This document shows, one piece after another, positions 15,531 through 64,000 of a stretch of DNA of 64,000 nt. The notes beneath the pieces are model-generated. The model worked only from the letters and a program-made list of their open reading frames with translations. It was not told the origin of the DNA and ran no database searches. Position 1 is the first letter of the stretch, and every line of letters begins with the position of its first letter. Source of the DNA: Felis catus (taxonomy: Eukaryota); assembly GCF_018350175.1 (NCBI RefSeq), contig NC_058368.1:110176001-110240000 (forward strand), in the 5' to 3' direction. The position numbers and the translations under genes are program-made.

Positions 15531-16350
15531 ACTCTCACACCTGTCAGAATGGCTAACATGAACAACTCAGGCAACAACAGACGTTGGTGAGGATGTGGAG
15601 AAAGGGGAACCCTCTTGCACTGCTGGTGGGAATGCAAACTGGTGCAGCCATTCTGGAAAACAGTATGGAGGTTCCTAAAAAAATTAAAAATAAAACTACC
15701 CTACCATCCAGCAATTGCATTACTAGGAATTTATCCAAGGGATACAGGTGTGCTGTTTCGAAGAAGCACATGCACCCCCATGTTTATAGCAGCACTATTA
15801 ACAATAGCCAAAGTATGGAATGAGCCCAAATATCCATGGATGGGTGAATGGATAAAGAAGATGCGGTATGTGCGTGTGTATATACACACACCACACACCC
15901 CCCCCCCCACACACATACACACTGGAATATTACTCGGCAATCAAAAAGAATGAAATCTTGCCATTTGCAACAACATGGCTGGAACTAGAGTGTATTATGC
16001 TAAGTGAAATAAGTCAGTCAGATAAGACAGATATCATATGATTTCACTTATATGTGGAATTTGAAAAACGCAACAGATTAACTTAGGGGAAGGGAAGGAA
16101 AAATAAAATAAGATAAAAACAGAGACGGAGGCAAACTGTAAGAGACTCATAAATACAGAGAACAAACAGGGCTGCTGGAGGGGAGGTGGATGGGGGGAGA
16201 AGGGAAAATGGGTAATGGGCATTAAGGAGGGCACTTGTTGGGATGAGCACTGGGTGTTGTATGTAAGAGATGGATTACTGGTTTTTACTCCTGAAGCCAA
16301 GACTACACTGTATGTTAACTAACTCGAATTTAAATAAATAAGTAAAACAA
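15531..16350 (+). mobile_element. 5'-truncated carnivore L1 (ORF2 C-terminus plus 3' UTR)
   Basis: Translation [40 protein letters not shown]...TPMFIAALLTIAK matches the L1 ORF2 C-terminus; carnivore-type 3' UTR (ggcattaaggagggcacttgttgggatgagcactggg) and A-rich tail. Confidence 0.95.
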
Positions 16351-17900: not shown

Positions 17901-18031
17901 CAATTTATTTGTTTTCAGCTTTGAGAATCGGCTTACAGACCGATGAGGAGAGGCCATCCAGAGGCTATCCCCGGTGGGAACAGATCTTGGCCAGGGAGTG
18001 CAACCCCAGCCTTTAAGATGAGCTCATCAGA

Positions 18032-18240
18032 GGGGCACCTGGGTGGCTCAGTCAGTTAAGCATCCGACTTCGGCTCAGGTCATGGTCTTGCGGTCAGTGA
18101 GTTCGAGCCCCGTGTCGGGCTCTGTGCAGACAGCTCAGAGCCTGGAGCCTATTTCAGATTCTGTGTCTCCCTCTCTCTCTGCTCATGCTCTGTCTCTCTG
18201 TCTCAGAAATAAATAAACGTTAAAAAATTAAAAAAAAAAA
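18032..18240 (+). mobile_element. Can-SINE (SINEC_Fc)
   Basis: Full-length; perfect 17-bp TSD aagatgagctcatcaga at 18015-18031 and 18241-18257. Confidence 0.97.
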
Positions 18241-18789
18241 AAGATGAGCTCATCAGATCTCGCACAGGAAGGCGATATTCCCCTGGTCACTCAGGCTGTA
18301 GCAAGGACTGGAGGAAAACGACCACGGCTCCTGTATTCCGGCCCTTTGCGCCCTCTCTCTCACATCGCTCACCTTGCCCGCATTCACCACTAACAAGCTG
18401 TGGCAGGTGGACCTTCTTCCCCTGACCCTGCTTTCTCAGTGAAGGCTGGTGTGACTTTGCAGAGTTTATATCACCCAGCTCCGGTTCTGACAAGCCTCCC
18501 GTTGCCCTGTTTCTTACACACTTTTCCTCCCAGGAGGGGCAGCTGTCGATTTCCCTCCCCGGAGAAGAAAACCTTGCCTGTCCACTATGTTCCAATCTAG
18601 GGCTCTGTGCCTGTACTTTCTGGATGCTACTGGGCAGGCTCTGATTTGAAAAGAAAAAAAAAAATCAATGGTATGCTACGTAGAAGTGACACATCAAAGC
18701 ATGTGAGCTTGTGGCGATCTGCCAGGTAAGCATCCCCGCAACTCATGGTCTACGGAGAGCTTGCAACGGAGGGCACCGCGTGGCCTGTC

Positions 18790-19438
18790 AGTCAGGACAG
18801 GACAAAGTGGCTCCTAGCCGGGTGCAAGGTGTCCCTCTTAGGGCCTCTGTGAGTCAGAGATCAGGACTGACCTGTCCTGCTTGGGGGGAAAGCCATCTTT
18901 GGCAGCCTGAGGTGATGGTTGCCCAAGTGGTTAAGGGGTCAAGAGTCAGTGAAGCCAGCCCTCTGCCTCCAGGCCAATGCCACTGCCTAGAGATGCGTCC
19001 GTAGAGGTGTCTTCCACATTTGGGAACTTAGGGAGGAGTGACAACCGAGTGAGAATTTCTGGAGAACTCTCGTCACAGAGGTGACATGATCTACTCTACA
19101 ATAAAGGAAATAGGCCTCTGGCTTGACCTCGATTCTTCCCGCTCTACTTTCTTCTAGGCTTCTTTCTTCTTCTTCTACTTTGTTCTAGGCTCAGGGAGGC
19201 TGAAGGGGAGCTAGTCCCCCTCTTCAGTGCTACCTGCTGCACCAGGAAACTGAGACATGGGGAGTGTGGCATCAAGAGGTGACTCTTGACCCCTTAGCCG
19301 CTTGGGCAGCCATCACCTCAGGCTGCCAAAGATGGCTTTCTCCCCAAACATGATTGGTCAGTCCTGATCTCTGACTCACAGAGGCCCTAAGAGGGACACC
19401 CTGCACCCAGCTAGGAGCCACTTTGTCCTTTCCTGACT
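18790..19438. repeat. Long inverted repeat: 159-bp arms (18790-18948 and 19280-19438) with 331-bp spacer
   Basis: Manual alignment of the left arm to the reverse complement of the right arm: no gaps, 11 mismatches in 159 (about 93%). Confidence 0.97.
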
Positions 19439-22400
19439 CTTTGTGCATCAGTGGTTATAATAACAAGGAAATGGGGCAGACACCCACACAGCGTCTCTGT
19501 GCCCCCGTTTTCGGGTCGACAACAGGGCAGCTCAGTAGATAGGTTCAGACTTCCCGTGTCCGGGAAGTGCACAGGCCAGCAGGAAATGCCAGGATTTGCT
19601 TATCTGAGTTAATAAGTCTATTCTGCAGCTGTCATCAAGGGCATTCTGTGCTCAGGGATGAGAAAACCTCCATGGCTTTTATGACTTATAGGCAGGCATT
19701 GCAACATTAAGCAGCTATTTGTGAAGAAGGGCCTTCATTTTCTGCTTCCTTACCCTGGCATTAATAAGGAAAGCACACCTAATTGCCAAGAATGGTTGAT
19801 GCAATGAGAGAAAATGGAGAGCCAGGGTCAGTGGGAAGGGCTGGCACAGCAGTGATTACTCTTAAATTATCTTTCCTCCGTCTTAGCAGCTTCCTATAAG
19901 CGCAATAAACAAACAGCAATTTCCTTGTAGTTTTGACTGGTAACTGTCTCACTGAACACTGACTAGTCCTGTAATTTTAATTGCTGGTACTCACTCCTAC
20001 CACCTATGGGAGGAATCATCCTATGGTCCTAAATTGTTCTCATATTCAGTTCCCAGAACCTGTTCCCAATAGGGAGAGACTGGGAAGGAATGCTTGTACG
20101 TGTCAAGGGGGCTGTGAGGCTGTGCTCCCAGGACCTGGTCTTCGCAGACATTCATGTCAGAGACCGTTGGGAGTGCTCTTAACTAAGAACGAAGGAAACG
20201 AGACTGAGCTTAACATCCTGAGAAGTGTGCTCAGTCTAGACACCAACTGCATCGATTTTCCCAGCTAACTACCAACAGGTGGAAGAGAAGAGCACACAAC
20301 AAAATGTCATTTATAATTTAAAATTCATTATTGAAAAAGGCTCAACAGTAATAGTCAGACTTCAGTCATTTCAAAGATGCCTTCGCAGAGGAGGCGCCCG
20401 CATCTGGGAACGGGAACTTGTGTGGGTTTTCCAGGGCTGCTTTCCTTGCCCCCCTTCACCGGGCCTCACCTCTCCCCTGGCCACAACCCTCCTGTCAGAA
20501 AACTACTTTATCTCTGGTGAAGTTTTATGCCAGGGATATATGACCGGAATACACGAAGGTCTTTTAAATTTATTTTCAATAGCCCTGCTCTTCTCTTCTC
20601 TATGAAATATTTAGCATTTAACTCGTTATTTCTACTGCTGGCAAAGTCTCAGGTGCAGGTGGCTTTGTCGAGATGGCAGAATATCACACCAAGGTAATTG
20701 TTTCTCTTTATTTCCTCTAGATAAAGAATAAGTAATAGGCAAGTCTGAATTATCAGGCGGTGCTTCCATCACGGGCTCCAGCGATAACATAAAGCAGGAG
20801 ATTGAATTTGGAGTGGTCTGCATAATCAGCTCTCCCCCCTCACTGCAAAAATTTGCCTGAGAATCAATCTGCATTTGCGAGCCGTTTCTGCTACCCCGTT
20901 CCTGCCTGCGTGTGATAGTTCCTGCTTTCTAGGAACTCTGAGCAGTAGAAATGCCTTTCAATATCCACCCTCAAGAAGGGTCTGGGCAAGCAGGGGGGAT
21001 CTGCCCCGCAGGGTGCAGGCGGCAGGAGGGTGCTGCATGGGGAGGCAGGAACCCAGTTCAGGGAGGGGGAAGGAGCTTGCAAGAAGACGAAAGGAGGAGA
21101 AGCTTTCGCTTCCAGGGGGAAAGCAAAGAGCACAGCACCCAGACGAGGGTCTTTGTGAGGGCCTGAACCAAATGGAATTGGTCTCCAAAACCCTCTGAAG
21201 TTCTGCCACGTAGCTTTAAGTACATCATGTTCAGCTCCATACAAAACGATGAAGGAAGCAGATAGCCAGTGACTGATACATCTTGGGCACTGTGCTTATG
21301 CCCCCTAAATTTCCTTATCTGGTGTAGACCTTATTATAATTCAGTGTTAATACCAAGCAGGCGTGAGTTTTAAATGAGTGTTGGTCTAAGCACTTGGTTT
21401 AGCAATACGTTGTGACCATCTTATACCAATGCCTTTATACCTCTCAGAAAAATTTGAGACTGAGAACAAAGTTTTCTTTTTCCCCCCTCCAAGCATTTTA
21501 AGCAGACGAGGCATAAATATTCATGAGTGATCGGAAAGCTAGCTACAGAGTTGTGGTGGAGAAAATGATTCTGTGAAAATTTTATAGCCCAGCCTCTGTG
21601 GTAAAGTCTAACTCGGAAAAAGGTACATCACATATCAGATTTGCCATCCTCACCAATGGATGTCCCATGGATGTTTCCACCAGATTCTCCTGAGCCCTCT
21701 TTCCCCACCTCATCAAATTCTTCTGTTCAGGACCCAGGGGCTTCCCTTTCTATGGAGAGTGGACCTCACTGATCCAACGTCAGTGGGACACTCACTGAGT
21801 GACCTTTAGATTTACATACATATATTATAATTATCATTGGGAGACTGATTGGTAAGTGTCTTCTTGGGCCACAGTGTGAATCTCAGGAAATGGCTGGATG
21901 AGGTCAGGGAACAAGATAAGCCTGGGTCAAGGATACTCAGTCCCTGGCTGGCATCATGGGATCCTCCAGGTAGATCAGCATAAACCCAACTGACCCTCCT
22001 GAAGGTTACATCCATGACCTTGACCTCATTGGCAAAATGTTTTAATACCTGGGGCTGTGCCTGGCACCTAGCATGTACTTAGTAAGTCACTTTATTATTG
22101 AAGACTTCTGCATGTTCTGTTATCACCATTCTGCTCAAGAAGCCAACAGACTAATACCATTGATACGCAGGTGTTTACCCACTAGGTATAACATTCGGTT
22201 TAAAGTGCCTGTCCGACTGACACACTAATTGTCACTGAGGGGAAAAAATAAATCTAAGAAGGAAGAAAGGAAGGAAGGGAGGGACAGTGCTAAACACACT
22301 CCTCAAATCTGCTAGTAGGTTAGTTGGTCTATAAGAATATTGCTCTGATTTGTCAGGGGAAAGAGTCAAATTTGCCATAACCATCAATAAACAGTTCTAC

Positions 22401-22494
22401 CATTTTCTCTTATTCTCTCCGCTATTTTAACAATTCCCTTCCATGTCTTTCCAATAGATTGCCATTATGCCGAGCAGTTACTTTATGCTGGTTA

Positions 22495-22680
22495 CTCTGC
22501 TCTGTGATTCTCATACTCTCATTGAATCCTCCCAGCAAACCCATGGAGTTAAGGGCTTATGATGCCACCCCTCTTGGAGATGAGGAAACTGAGGCTGGAG
22601 AGCAGAGGTGGCTTGTCCAAGGTCACAGAACTGGTTAGTGCCAGAGCTGGGAATCAAACTGCTTGTGTGGCTCCCAAACA
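22495..22680 (-). mobile_element. MIR
   Basis: gagatgaggaaactgaggctggagag...ttgtccaaggtcacagaactggttagtgccagagctgggaatcaaac. Confidence 0.8.
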
Positions 22681-23389
22681 TTTGCTCTTAGCCAATTCCT
22701 GGTATTTCCCTTTTCAGGAAGATACAGGGCGACAGACATGACCCTTTACAGTTTTGTCTGCTTCTCTTCTCTGAGAGAACTTGCTGAAATTTTAATTGGC
22801 TTGAGTGACAGCTTTTCTGAAATCTTCTTCAAACTTTACCTTTCAAAATCGGCAAAATCCCCCCCCCCTTTTTTCCCCCTTTTATTCCTGAGAATCACCA
22901 GTTTTCCAGAGAATTCAGACAGAAGTTTGCCCAGATAATTGATAAATCTGTTTGCAGGTACTGAAGTACATACCTCTCATTGGGGGACATTTCATATTAC
23001 TCTATGCTTCAAATACTGAAAAGTCCCCACCGTCTGGCTTGTGTGGCCTCAACAGTGATGGTGTCTGAGGCAGACGCCAACCCGTTAATACCAGTGGCAC
23101 AATTTTCCCTTTCTGAATCTCAATTTGGTACATATTACTGTAGGAGCGAATTTCATTAGGAAGCAAATTATGTTCTTCCATCGAAGGTCCCCCTTGAACC
23201 AAAAACCACTCTTGATGTTCCTCCAAGATTTTCCTAATGAAAGATATGTGGGGATGAACTGCCTAACCCATCCCACGATCTCTTTCCCTTAATAAAATGT
23301 ATGCTGTGGAAAGCCCACATCGTGGCCCCAATTGGATTTAGGCTCACGCAGCTACCTTCATCCTCACGATTTATGATGTGACTGTACAC

Positions 23390-30925: not shown

Positions 30926-32449
30926 TAATTCTAGCAAGCATTCCCTCCCCTGTTCTGTCCTTCAGTTTCTTTAAAACTAGCTCAGTGGTCAACAATGTCT
31001 GAAAATGCTTGGCAGGAGAGAAGTTGAAGAAAAATGTGTTTCCCTACGAAGAAGCCATCGCCCAATGCACATTACTTTCACTGGCTTGCACCAAGAAAGC
31101 AAGAACAACACCCAGGTGACCCTTCAAAGCTGACTGGTGCGTTACCAGAAGGGTCTAGAGAGCCCCCGGCCTCAGCTCCTGGCCTGCAGAGAGGGCTGAA
31201 GCCCACAGCCAGGGAAGGCATTGGAAGGGCCTCGGGGGCTGGGAGCTGGGCTGGCCGTGGGCACATGCAGGGGAGGGTGGGGGAGGGAGGAGCCCCGGAC
31301 CACACTGGTGGGCACTGCCTTCACACTGGAGCTCCACAAAAGCCCACAAACTAATAGGTTCTCCATGGAAAATGATGCAGAAGTGGAGGCCCAGGCAGGG
31401 TGACTTGCTGGGAAGGGACAGAACTGTGACCGGGCAGGGACTTCAATACATTTACAGCACCTACGTGTGTGCGGCGGTGTGCAAGGGGAGTGGGGCTGAC
31501 ACACACCGTACACATCCTCCACGCCTTTCAAAAGCGCTCTGTGGGCTCACGAGGGTGCTGCGCTTCGGGCAGTTCATCATGTGAGCAAAGGGAGGCCTCA
31601 CAAACTCGTGTCTCCCTGCGCTTGGCACCCAGCGGGCACCACCGCCAGGGCTGCCACACTCGGGGCAAACACGCACCGTGGGCAGGTGCCCACGGTTGGT
31701 GGCTGCTGCCTGTTTGCTATTCTCTTCCCTGCGCAATCCGAGCTGTCACCGTTTGTCCTTGCAGATGATGGAACACGAGCCACTCTGAGGTGAGGCATCA
31801 CACACAGGGGCCCCGGGAACATCATGGCAGGGTCCCTGTCTGCGGGAACTATTCTGCTGTCAGCCTATCTCTGGAACTTCGGGTGTGCAAATGCCTCTGG
31901 ACCTGGGGTTTTCACTATTAAACGTCAAAGCCCTACCTTATCAGGTGGTTGCAAGTGTGTCCTGAGCTGGTGATGGAAATATTTTAGCGCGGTGCCCGGT
32001 AGATGACAAATCCTCACTTTGGTAAAGGGGAGTCAGCCACGAGGAGGCTATTTCCTCCTCTGCAGGTACCCCAACATGCAGTCAGACCCTCGCGCGCCAC
32101 TGGCCAGCCCCAGTGCTTAGGTTGGCTGAGCCCTCCGTGGAGTCATGCATGGGGCTAGCGCCTCAGACCGTTTCTGACCCCAAGAAAATGCCAGGACCCA
32201 TGGGTCTGCCTCCAACTCCACTGCTGTGGGGCTCGGACTGTCTGTTGTTATGATCCAGTTACAGAACGTGAGGTCCAAAAGCAATGGACCAGTCTAGCAC
32301 TATCATTTTACAGATGGGAAGTCTGGTGTTCCAAGAGACAAGGGTCGTGCCTCCCACAGGGACAGTTAAGGAACTCAAATTCAGATCTCTGTGCACACAA
32401 CTGTGTTTTAAAGAACTGGTAGCTAGAGTATCTATGTATATATATAAAT

Positions 32450-32820
32450 TTTTTAATATCAAATTTATTGTTAAATTGATTTCCATACAACACCCAGTGC
32501 TGATCCCAAAAGGTGCCCTCCTCAACACCCATCTCCCATGCTCCCCTCCCTCCCATCCCCCATCAACCCTCATTTTGTTCTCAGTTTTTAGGAGTCTCTT
32601 ATGCTTTGGCTCTCTTCCACTCTAACCTCTTTTTTTTCCTTCCCCTCCCCCATGGGTTTCTGTTAAGTTTCTCAGGATCCACATAAGAGTGAAACCATAT
32701 GGTATCTGTCTTTCTCTGTATGACTTATTTCACTTAGCATAACACTCTCCAGTTCCATCCACATTGCTACAAAGAGCCATATTTCATTCTTTCTTATTGC
32801 CACGTAGTATTCCATTGTGT
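32450..32820 (-). mobile_element. 5'-truncated feline L1 3' end
   Basis: Reverse L1 3' UTR (ccatacaacacccagtgctgatccc...gacttatttcacttagcataac); flanking tatatataa(a)tttttt repeats consistent with a TSD. Confidence 0.93.
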
Positions 32821-36395: not shown

Positions 36396-36544
36396 TACTT
36401 TGATATTAATGCTACCACAAAGCATTTTCTCGTATTTGTGTGTTACTATACCTTTCCCCATTCATTTCATTTCAAATTTTGTGTCATCATATTTAGATAT
36501 GATGGGTAAATAGGACATCTCTATATTTCAAAAATTCAATCTGA

Positions 36545-36709
36545 AGAGACTCTTAAGGACTGAGAACAAACTGAGGGTTGATTGGAGAGAGGGGAAAGTG
36601 GGCGATGGGCATGGAGGAGGGCACTTGTTAGGATGAGCATTGGGTGTTGTATGGAAACCAGTATGACAATAAATTATATTTAAAAAAAATAAAAAGCATA
36701 AAACATTTA
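36545..36709 (+). mobile_element. Very short (about 165 bp) 5'-truncated feline L1 3' end
   Basis: L1 3' UTR (agagactcttaaggactgagaacaaactgaggg...ggatgagcattgggtgttgtatggaaacc); perfect 15-bp TSD aaaaattcaatctga at 36530-36544 and 36710-36724. Confidence 0.93.
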
Positions 36710-53489: not shown

Positions 53490-53722
53490 AATAATGGTAG
53501 CTAATATCTGAATGCCCACTGAATGCCAGGCCCTGCACCAAAATATTTATATATCTTATGTCCTTTAGTTTTGACAATAACCCTATGAGGCAGGCACCAA
53601 TACTAGCCCCATTTCACAGCTGGAGGAATTGAGGTTCAGTGTCTAAGGTCACAGAGGTATTAAGTGTCCTGGCCAGGCTATGGAGCCTAGTTTGTCTGAC
53701 ACCCAGTGCTGGGCTCCTAACC
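53490..53722 (-). mobile_element. MIR
   Basis: gacaataaccctatgaggcaggc...cccatttcacagctggaggaattgagg...ctaaggtcacagagg. Confidence 0.75.
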
Positions 53723-54959
53723 AATAAGCTAGAGCCTATAACAACATCCCATATACAATGGTTCTCTACAAAACAACCTGTAGGCATCATATATTGACAA
53801 AAGCCACTGACCCCAAAAGATCAGGTGGTAAGTCAAATGAGATTATGCCCACCTGTGTATAAAAAATTAACATTCAAGCCCCAACGATTGTGCATAATAT
53901 TCCTAGGTTGGGTTACAAGCTCTGGTTGCCCAGGTGGTAGCTTCCTGCCAGCTGCCCATGATTAATTTATGATTCCAGGGTTTATTATTGTATCTACCCA
54001 GCAAATGTCCCCAGCCATTCCCTAGAACAGGCCATACAGGCTTTCAGCAAGATCAATTTTCCCAGCAGAAGGAAAAACCACAGACTCAGCTCCCTACCCA
54101 GATTTTATCTCTTGTTCTGAGAGAAGTAGGGGAAAAAAAAAAACAAAACATTTTAAAGGCAAACAGGAACAGAATTTAGTGTGTGTGTTACTGAGGGTGC
54201 TGTTTTTGTTCAGTCCTAGGGAAACCTTTCTGGAATGTGGGAAGCTCTGTGCTCTGTCTTCCTGTTTCTGCTGGTGACTCACAGAACTGATCGAAGAGCA
54301 GTAAACCAAACCTGCATCCCATTATATCAGGCTTCTGACACACATCTCTTCTGGCCTTGGGATCCATCTGTGAAATGGGAACAGGAACACCAGCTATCCG
54401 TGCAAGAAGGTTTCTATATAGCTCTTGGGTGGTGCCCTTTGTAGGAGTCATTCTTACAATGCCTCTGTAGCAACTGGTACTTCTATTGCTTGGTAAACCC
54501 TCAGGTTCATCTCTAGGAGGTTTTGTAAACTCAGTTAAGTAGGCCTGGGATGTAATCCCTGAGTTCCATCAAGGTCAGAGAGAGTGATGTCAAGGACATC
54601 ACAACCACAGCCAAGCCCACTGAGGGCCTCTGGACAGCCGACGACCTAGGGTGGCATCCCTCGGCAGCACAGGTGGTCTACAATGGGCCTGCAAGCCTGA
54701 CAGAGGACATGATCAGAAGCCTGAGATATCCAGCATCAGTCACTGATGAAGCCACATGTGATTTTTTTCTTTCCAACCAAATCCTTAAGAACAAGAATGT
54801 AGATGATTGCATACTATGCCACAGCCCCCGCCCTCCTAGAGGCTGCCTCAATTACACCAATCCTGTCACTCACTATTCTCAGTACACTCACAGCCTCTTC
54901 TAAGGAAAACTGTCTCAACCAAAGACCCAGCTAAAAGGGTACCTCTAGGCACCCATGCT

Positions 54960-57643: not shown

Positions 57644-57864
57644 GGGGCGCCTGGGTGGCTCAATCGGGTAAGCGGCCGACTTCACCTCAGGTCATGATCT
57701 CACGGTCTGTGAGTTCGAGCCCCGCATCGGGCTCTGTGCTGACAGCTCAGAGCCTGGAGCCTGTTTCAGATTCTTTGTCTCCCTCTCTCTGACCCTCCCC
57801 CATTCATGCTCTGTCTCTCTCTGTCCCAAAAATAAATAAACGTTAAAAAAAATTAAAAAAAAAA
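57644..57864 (+). mobile_element. Can-SINE (SINEC_Fc)
   Basis: TSD aagaaatacagctgg / aagaaatacatctgg. Confidence 0.96.
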
Positions 57865-58387: not shown

Positions 58388-59130
58388 GTTGTGGAGAAAA
58401 GGGAACCCCTGTGCACCGTTGGTAGGAACGTAAATGGGTATAGTCACTGTGGAAAACGGTATGGAGCTTCCTTAGAAAATTAAAAATAGAGCTACCTTGT
58501 GATCCCACAATTCCATTTCTGGGTATATCTCCAAAGGAATTGAAATCAGGATCTCATAGAGATATCTGTACTTAACTACGTTCATTACAGTGTTATTCAC
58601 AACAGCCAAGATATGGAAATAACCTAAGTATCCATCAAGGGATAAAGAAGACGTGGCATATGTACCCGATGGAATACTTTTCAGTCATGAGAAAAGGAAA
58701 TTCTGCCATTTGCAACAACTTGGAGAAATCTTGAGGACATTATGCTAAGTGATCTAAGTCAGACAAAGAAAGGCAAATGCGGTATGATATAACTTATATA
58801 TGGGATCTTAGCCCAACTCAGAGAAACAGAGTAGAGTGATAGTTATCAGGGACAGGAAATGAGGGTGGGGGGGCGGGGGGAATAGGGAGATGATGATCAA
58901 AGGGTACAAACTTCTAGTTAGAAGATTAACAAGTTCGAGTGATCATTAATGTACAACACAGTGATGACAGTTAATATTGTATCATATAACTGAAAGTTGC
59001 TAAGAGAGATCTTAAATGTTCTCGTCACACAAAAGAAAAGGCAACTGTATATAATGAGATAGAGGTGTTCGCTAATACTACACTGATAATCATTTCATAA
59101 TATGTAAATGTATCGAATCAACACATTTAA
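58388..59130 (+). mobile_element. L1 3' end (L1MA-like, ORF2 C-terminus plus 3' UTR)
   Basis: gtggagaaaagggaacccctgtgcaccgttggtagg...ttaaaaatagagctacc...gggtacaaacttctagttagaagattaacaagttc. Confidence 0.88.
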
Positions 59131-59271: not shown

Positions 59272-59491
59272 GGGGCGCCTAGGTGGCTCAGTCGGTTGAG
59301 CATCCAACTTCGCTCAGGTCACGATCTCACGGTCCGTGAGTTCGAGCCCCGCATCAGGCTCTGTGCTGACAGCTCAGAGCCTGGAGCCTGCTTCAGATTC
59401 TGTGTCTCCCTCTCTCTGACCCTCCCCCGTTCATGCTCTGTCTCTCTCTGTCTCAAAAATAAATAAATGTTAAAAAAAATTAAAAAAAAAA
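59272..59491 (+). mobile_element. Young Can-SINE (SINEC_Fc)
   Basis: Perfect 18-bp TSD aagacaaagatgctcaca at 59254-59271 and 59492-59509. Confidence 0.97.
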
Positions 59492-60737
59492 AAGACAAAG
59501 ATGCTCACATATTGTATACCATGACTTTGTTTTCTGTAAAGTCCAGTCATTGCAATTAGACAAGAAAACAAAATGGCAGTCAAAATACATCAGAGGGAGA
59601 GAAAAAGAATCCTCTCTTCTGGACAAAATCCACAACTTACAAAATTACTCTTAGAATTTATTAAGGACTCAGTAAGGCAACTGACTAAAACATAAAGTAA
59701 CAGAAGAGCAGATCAAATGGCAAAAAAAAAAATAAAAATCCGGTTTACGACAGCAAACCCAAAATATAACATGTCTATGAAACATACAAAACACATACGA
59801 AGAACATTACAAGTCTATTGAGAAAAATAGGATACTTGACTGAATGGAGGGACCCTATGTCTCTGAATGGAAACATTCAAGATTGTAAAAATGTCAATCT
59901 TCTCTCTCCATAACCTCTAACAACACAATTCCAGTAAATGTCTAACAGGGGTTCTTTTCGGAATATAACAAATACTATTCAAACTCATGCAAAAAAACAA
60001 TTTTCCAGAAAATATTTGGGAAAGGCAGTATGGGGTATTGACTTATCCTACATGAAAATCTGTGGTAGAGCGAGGGGGGCAGTGCGGCGCACAAGGGGGA
60101 ACAGACAGATCAAAACAAGAGGAGAAAGCCATGAAGAAATGCGTGCAAATGATAAAGGTGCTGTTTCAAAGCAAAGAAGAAAGGATATGTCATTCAATTT
60201 ATGGTGTTGGGACAACAAGTTAACCACATGGGAGATAATTAAATTAGATCTCTGCCTTACAGCACACATTACATTCTCAACAAACTAAAAAATGTAACAA
60301 CTGATACCGTAAGAGTATGAGAAGAAAGTATAGATAAATATTTATATCATTCTTGGTTTGGAAAGAACTTTCTAAGCCCACAAGATACTAAAAAGAAAAA
60401 AAAATGGAAGAATTTGCCTACATAAGCATGGAAAAAACCTTCTGTATGTTAAGCTTATCACAAAATTAATAGGCCAATGACAAATTGGGGAAACATCTGC
60501 AAAATCTATGCTGAAAAGTGAATGTCTTTAATATACTAAATTGTTACTTTACACATCAGTGAGAAAAAGATGAGATACACCAACAGAAAAAAAGTAAAAG
60601 GAACAGTCATGCCATGCAGAAATCAATACGAGGGCCCAACAAACAGACAAAAACTTGTTTATCATCACTGATGATCAAAGTAAGGCACATTAATACAGGG
60701 AAATACCATTTCAGAATATAACATTAGCAAAGATTTT

Positions 60738-60953
60738 TTTTTAATTTTTTTTTAACATTATTCATTTTTGAGACAGAGAGAGACACAGCATGAACGGGGG
60801 AGGGCCAGAGAGAGGGAGACACAGAATCTGAAACAGGCTCCAGGTTCTGAGCTGTCAGCACAGAGCCCGACGCGGGGCTCGAACTCACGGACCACGAGCT
60901 CATGACCTGAGCCGAAGTCGGCCGCTTAACCGACTGAGCCACCCAGGTGCCCC
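60738..60953 (-). mobile_element. Young Can-SINE (SINEC_Fc)
   Basis: CpG-rich reverse copy; TSD aacattagcaaagatttt on both sides (starting 60720 and 60954). Confidence 0.97.
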
Positions 60954-63317: not shown

Positions 63318-64000
63318 CCAAAACAAAAAGCTTCTGTAGAGCAAAGGAAACCATCAACAAATGAAAAGGCGACCTAGTGAATGGGAGAAGATACTAGCAA
63401 ATGATATATCTGAAAAGGGGTCACCATCCAAAATATACAAAGAACTCATACAACTCAACACACACTAAAAACAATCCGATTAAAAAATAGGGAGAGGACT
63501 TGAATAGACATTTTTCCAGAGGACATCCAGATAGCCAACATACACACCAAAAGATGCTCAACATCACTTATCATCAGGGAAGTGCAAATCAAAACCATAA
63601 GAGATACCATCTCATACCAGTTCGGATGGCATCCAAAAGACAAGACACAACAAGTGTTGACGAGGATGTGGGGAAAATGGAGCCCTTGTATACTGTTGGT
63701 GGGAATGTAAATTGGTATAATCACTGTGGAAAACAGTATGGAGTTTCCCCCCAAAATTAAAAATAGAAATATCACATGATCCAGTAATTCTACATTGGGT
63801 ATTTACCCAAAGAATACAAAAACGCTAATTCGGAAAGATACATACACCCATCCCTGTGTTTACAGCAACATTATTTACAATAGCCAAGATATGGAAGCAA
63901 CCCAGCATCCATCCATCCATCGATGATATATGTATCTATATATTTATATATTAATATTTGTATATTTATATACTTATACACGTATATATTTAGATTTGTA
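63318..64000 (+). mobile_element. L1 ORF2 3' region (degraded), continuing beyond the window
   Basis: aaaagcttctgtagagcaaaggaaaccatcaac...gaatgggagaagatactagcaaat; translations LNRHFS and [10 protein letters not shown] resemble L1 ORF2. Confidence 0.92.

Follow-up and report, generated by a model that had tools for sequence, protein, structure and literature searches.

Insertions of the MMB-TI class lie near their template and inverted to it, carry microhomology at the junction and, as described in PMC8421209, occur as germline variants in normal cells. Thousands of short-range template switches have been reported in apes, many of them in the ‘4 before 1’ configuration, in which the return point lies ahead of the leaving point and one large insertion results (PMC7954356). 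Non-repetitive intergenic inverted duplicates are abundant in mammals, with millions per genome and 0.6–0.8 per kb of non-repetitive DNA according to PMC5398296.

The inverted repeat described here lies within a window of 64 kb, the window being the whole stretch of DNA that was analysed (64,000 nucleotides). Self-comparison of the window reveals two arms of 159 nt each, at 18790–18948 and 19280–19438, around a spacer of 331 nt. The arms align without gaps and with 11 mismatches (93% complementary, BLAST E 4e-64), comprising 8 transitions and 3 transversions; 5 mismatches would form G-U pairs on a plus-strand transcript and 3 on a minus-strand transcript. Arm length, mismatch number, spacer and G-U counts were recomputed and agree with those given in an earlier note on this DNA. 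The same note placed the arms in apparently unique sequence, with no resemblance to a recognised SINE, LINE or LTR, and within the 64-kb window this holds as far as SINE and L1-like copies are concerned: a sensitive self-search returned no third arm copy, and the arms neither overlap nor match the 21 SINE copies and the L1-like self-matches mapped there. An inverted pair of the local young SINE or L1 was tried as an explanation and rejected for this lack of a match. The window contains 302 inverted pairs, and among the longest 25 of these the studied repeat is the sole long non-SINE pair, the other 24 being SINE pairs. The features of the locus are as follows, by position in the window.

18790–18948, plus strand: left arm, the likelier template and older copy, a polarity drawn from microhomology totals.
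18790–18795, minus strand: outer end of the left arm, putative switch-back microhomology, 5 bp with the spacer kept and 6 bp with the spacer inverted.
18850–18856, unstranded: heptamer that we take to be of AP-1 type, inside a 45-bp identical core; second copy at 19372–19378.
18871–18879, plus strand: cluster of 3 arm mismatches, at which the left arm reads exactly as 18793–18801 reverse-complemented.
18941–18948, minus strand: inner end of the left arm, formed by the 8-mer TGACTCTT, putative switch-out microhomology.
18949–19279, unstranded: spacer, 331 bp, for which two orientation models are compatible with the junctions.
19133–19191, plus strand: pyrimidine-rich 31-bp tandem, 1.9 copies, within the spacer.
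19280–19438, minus strand: right arm, the likelier of the two to be the templated insertion.
19280–19287, plus strand: TGACTCTT, copy 1 of an 8-bp direct repeat, innermost in the right arm.
19288–19433, minus strand: interval between the two 8-mers, 146 bp, itself free of terminal inverted repeats.
19434–19441, plus strand: copy 2 of the direct repeat, 5 bp in the arm and 3 bp in the outer flank, the putative ancestral target site.

Heptamers of the AP-1 type number 11 in the 64-kb window, 2 of them in the arms of the inverted repeat, and there is no evidence for a functional role of this pair.

The right arm begins with the 8-mer TGACTCTT, which returns 154 bp later over the outer end of the same arm; reverse-complemented, it also forms the left arm's inner end. 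The two ends of the left arm have only 6 bp in common. In simulations that paste a randomly chosen 159-bp segment in inverted orientation at a distance of 331 bp, ignoring sequence, a repeat of at least 8 bp at both ends of either arm arises in 98 of 56,008 pastes, and narrower nulls for the 8-bp direct repeat give 8/20,000 and 54/200,000. A first junction null (p=0.06) included arm-terminal bases that match by construction and was superseded by the null of 56,008 pastes. The locus therefore combines two of the features by which a template switch is recognised, a copy inverted with respect to a template close by and microhomology at both junctions (8 bp and 5–6 bp). The mechanism that follows depends on a single 8-bp coincidence, which was spotted by inspection.

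The repeat was probably created by a germline replication or repair error, a microhomology-mediated templated insertion, and would have drifted neutrally afterwards; the template switch itself is what we infer from the junctions. The ancestor would have carried a single arm, most likely the left, together with an 8-bp word ∼340 bp further on that was complementary to the inner end of that arm. A nascent 3' end could pair through these 8 bp and switch to the opposite strand, after which the polymerase would copy backwards through the arm. Return would take place where the new end matches 5–6 bp of the same 8-bp word, which would then be copied again, leaving 154 extra bp flanked by an 8-bp direct repeat. 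Two geometries would lead to this outcome. With the spacer kept, the switch order would be 3-2-4-1, with 8+5 bp of homology and ∼150 nt copied; with the spacer inverted in the same event, the order would be 3-1-2-4, with 8+6 bp and ∼480 nt copied. The extra matching base would favour spacer inversion, whereas the shorter copied tract would favour a simple insertion. If the left arm were the new one, the homologies would be 5+6 and 5+5 bp, giving totals of 10–11 bp for left-derived models against 13–14 bp for right-derived models, and because of the higher totals the right arm is more probably the new copy. A pre-event empty site that lacks the right insert is a prediction of this mechanism: in an outgroup the 154 bp would be missing, one 8-bp word would be left, and the orientation of the spacer would separate the two switch orders. 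Staggered breaks, or end joining that uses a templated patch, could also give similar junctions. A local inverted duplication was one of the readings offered in the earlier note, and it is this one that gains support, the junction microhomologies now supplying a mechanism.

The left arm may record a further event. The exact 9-bp inverted pair formed by 18793–18801 and 18871–18879 exists in the left arm only and holds all 3 inter-arm transversions. Its chance is ∼0.002 per 9-mer, for a pair noticed post hoc, and a second, short template switch is a possible source of the mismatch cluster at 18871–18879.

MITE and foldback transposons also consist of a short spacer between long inverted termini, and insertions of the hAT type have an 8-bp target-site duplication (TSD). 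The locus could on these grounds be a non-autonomous foldback or MITE-like DNA element, or else a single dispersed repeat inserted twice independently, since its outward form is right and its 8-bp duplication has the hAT-type length. Both versions are nevertheless very unlikely. No TSD stands at the exact ends of the unit, where the best duplication is 3 bp after sliding the ends by up to 6 bp, and the 146-bp insert is devoid of terminal repeats. That the 8-mer is also a part of the left arm is not expected from separate insertions, and within the 64-kb window neither a family, a third copy nor a match to the SINE or L1-like copies is seen. The ‘foldback element’ of the earlier note thus fails at the target site, and its statement that no TSD is present stands for the whole 649-bp unit but not for the right arm, which is bounded by the 8-bp direct repeat. 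A hAT-type insertion was tried separately and rejected, as the ends of the insert share 1 base and the duplicated 8-mer also forms the end of the opposite arm.

The templated insertion favoured here resembles MMB-TI (PMC8421209) in being inverted and close to its template, in its microhomology at both junctions and in its presumed germline origin. It differs in being an old event (7% arm divergence), in its length of ∼150 bp and in being known from the derived allele alone, and its template distance of 331 bp exceeds the 100-bp search range of MMBSearch (PMC8421209). With the four-point template switch of PMC7954356 it shares the nearby reverse-complement fragment, the single inverted repeat and the large insertion, here only possibly of the ‘4 before 1’ type, whereas the copied length is greater than in the great-ape gold-standard events reported there, for which the median is 12 and the maximum 128 nt. 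The limits of 128 nt and 100 bp stem at least partly from the detection methods. The arms, spacer and foldability of the locus fall within the definition of the intergenic inverted duplicates of PMC5398296 (arms of 10–10,000 nt, spacer below 1,000 nt), although at 159 bp it sits in the long tail of a distribution whose human 80th percentile is 36 nt. The earlier note regarded the repeat as the best candidate in the window for something undescribed; this finds no support, as the class is already well described in these sources (PMC8421209, PMC7954356, PMC5398296).

The polarity of the event was also approached through remnants of old SINEs. A profile made from 4 old-SINE copies in the window has no match at the inverted repeat. 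Weak matches at 18925–19005 (plus strand) and 19244–19284 (minus strand) lead to old SINE copies at 22480–22705 and 53560–53740, which we take to be MIR-like: one match, head-like, spans the left inner junction, and the other, core-like (27/31 identical), is found at the right inner junction, neither being significant in continuity tests. Those direct tests of junction continuity give p=0.40–0.88, with 0.40 and 0.50 for the key two, and lend no support to either polarity. Twelve pairwise tests yielded a single p=0.008, in the orientation opposite to that expected, and no other value below 0.07. A head-anchored test, chosen afterwards, returned p=0.011 for the left junction and p=0.40 for the right.

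Judged from their differences, the arms look like neutrally decaying DNA. Each holds one CpG site that is TpG in the opposite arm, and this decay of CpG in both arms fits independent decay in methylated DNA. The K2P distance between the arms is 0.073, which corresponds to 15.9–23.8 My at 2.3–1.54e-9 substitutions per site per year, rates taken from PMC9290555 and PMC4643047; when the CpG sites and the mismatch cluster are left out, the estimate falls to 8.9–13.3 My. The divergence suggests an age of ∼16–24 My, with limits of 8–39 My, and such an age predicts that the repeat is present in most felids and absent in dog, unless conversion hides a greater age.

Conversion would do so if the repeat were an active recombination substrate, with recurrent flips of the spacer or gene conversion between the arms, and hence older than its divergence suggests. 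The identical runs of 45 bp and 31 bp, and the slightly better junctions of the spacer-inverted model (8+6 against 8+5 bp), are compatible with such activity. The runs are, however, within the random spacing of 11 mismatches, the longest of 45 bp being unremarkable (p=0.26, in a test of low power), and mismatches come within 8 and 17 bp of the arm ends. Mismatches cluster along the arms with p=0.05, and neither this clustering nor the longest run gives evidence of conversion tracts. The arm-specific CpG decay is something that recent conversion would be expected to erase. Continuing recombination is thus distinctly unlikely, and independent decay after a single templated insertion is the preferred account.

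An assembly artefact is extremely unlikely in view of the diverged arms and the retention of words in sequencing runs. The 11 differences between the arms show a CpG-decay pattern, and 14 of the 24 listed runs, from 6 studies, contain 0.95 of 173 words sampled from 18300–20000, although the window itself may derive from one of the 14. Were the right insert lost, 160 of 1,655 distinct words (9.7%) would go with it, and the small number actually missing would have p ∼0.05 even if all of them lay in that insert. An exact 24-base arm pattern matched nothing in viral contigs or in metagenome contigs.

Mouse oocytes contain hairpin endo-siRNA loci. An inverted repeat born by the proposed template switch could be transcribed and work as a long hairpin RNA, whether as an ADAR substrate, as a source of oocyte endo-siRNA or in splicing and back-splicing. 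The predicted stem is very stable on either strand, with 153 (plus) and 151 (minus) of the 159 positions paired, unbroken runs of 68 and 74, and fold z-scores of -23 and -28 against 20 shuffles each; the z-scores are so strong because any such inverted repeat must fold in this way. A stem of ∼160 bp, which the earlier note held to be possible, is accordingly predicted on both strands. Precedents exist in the miRNA hairpins seeded by template switches (PMC10710096), where the same birth mechanism could yield an instant hairpin, and in mouse oocytes, the main setting in which long hairpins feed RNAi according to transgene work (PMC3245926). The pri-miRNA of PMC10710096 has a stem of ∼35 bp and a short apical loop, whereas the 159-bp stem and 331-nt loop found here are not miRNA-shaped.

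Two observations bear on transcription. Four RNA-labelled runs, and 2 further runs guessed to be RNA, contain 0.53–0.77 of the sampled words; the four are metatranscriptomes from 2 studies, with 446–1,887 million letters of contigs, and their word shares are not taken as expression and may reflect carry-over of host DNA. The repeat-masked T-A skew on the plus strand is -0.051 over the whole window (95% interval -0.087 to -0.013) and only -0.014 in 16–24 kb, which is weakly and unevenly the skew of a minus-strand transcript, so that minus-strand transcription is possible. The excess of A over T on the plus strand of repeat-masked sequence is seen window-wide and is reversed at 32–40 kb (+0.111).

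Against a hairpin RNA stands the absence of a G-U bias (5 of the 8 transitions give G-U on the plus strand, p=0.73, with low power), as does the decay of CpG sites seen in each arm. Neither a coding exon nor an RNA family was found. None of the 393 stop-to-stop ORFs of at least 62 aa in the window reaches the Pfam cut-off, with 4 weak hits, in a screen that would miss short or uncatalogued exons; as far as can be told, the 64-kb window is non-coding. Rfam places no family on the repeat and gives 2 chance hits near it at E 4.4, while across the window it finds 2 tRNA-like hits, both on the heads of SINE copies. The repeat would in any case add little new dsRNA, since SINE pairs within the 64 kb match its stem in both length and identity (220 nt at 90%, 179 nt at 92%). 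Intergenic inverted duplicates are, moreover, rarely expressed in the survey of PMC5398296: 7.8% in human and 5.7% in mouse, against 7.4% and 5.5% for mirror controls. The hairpin or endo-siRNA locus proposed in the earlier note finds no positive support in these results, G-U pairs at transitions being at chance level, and a working hairpin RNA is unlikely; lack of function is what we infer. The SINE copies at 57644–57863, 59312–59490 and 60734–60953, two of which face the third in inverted orientation at 90–92% identity and at distances of 1.2 and 2.9 kb, are better ordinary candidates for dsRNA than the studied repeat.

It is improbable that the locus is a felid-specific long hairpin of the minus strand that undergoes ADAR editing or oocyte dicing, or that its arms flip the 331-bp spacer between two sites of the AP-1 type. 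Were such a hairpin real, it would have arisen in one step from a template switch exceeding the catalogued ape events in length, and in the hairpin or the flipping form the locus would be a dated, junction-resolved long dsRNA element born de novo from non-repeat DNA. Expression together with editing or small RNAs, if found, would mean that template switching makes long functional dsRNA, beyond stems of miRNA size.

The repeat is real and is likely to be what its junctions suggest, a probably neutral local inverted duplication in which the template switch can still be read. As it stands, it matters little, as a well-preserved trace of a mutation process already known, and its value lies in junctions that are readable after an estimated 16–24 My. 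A young SINE at 18016–18259, 540 bp to the left of the repeat, has a TSD of ∼16 bp on both sides, in contrast with the 8-bp junction repeat; the SINE of the window presumably resembles a family of feliform carnivores. Five mutually similar fragments (63–79%) lie at 15574–16266, 32449–32820, 36537–36686, 58390–58806 and 63647–63913, four of them in the same orientation, and we take them to be probably the ends of old L1 copies.
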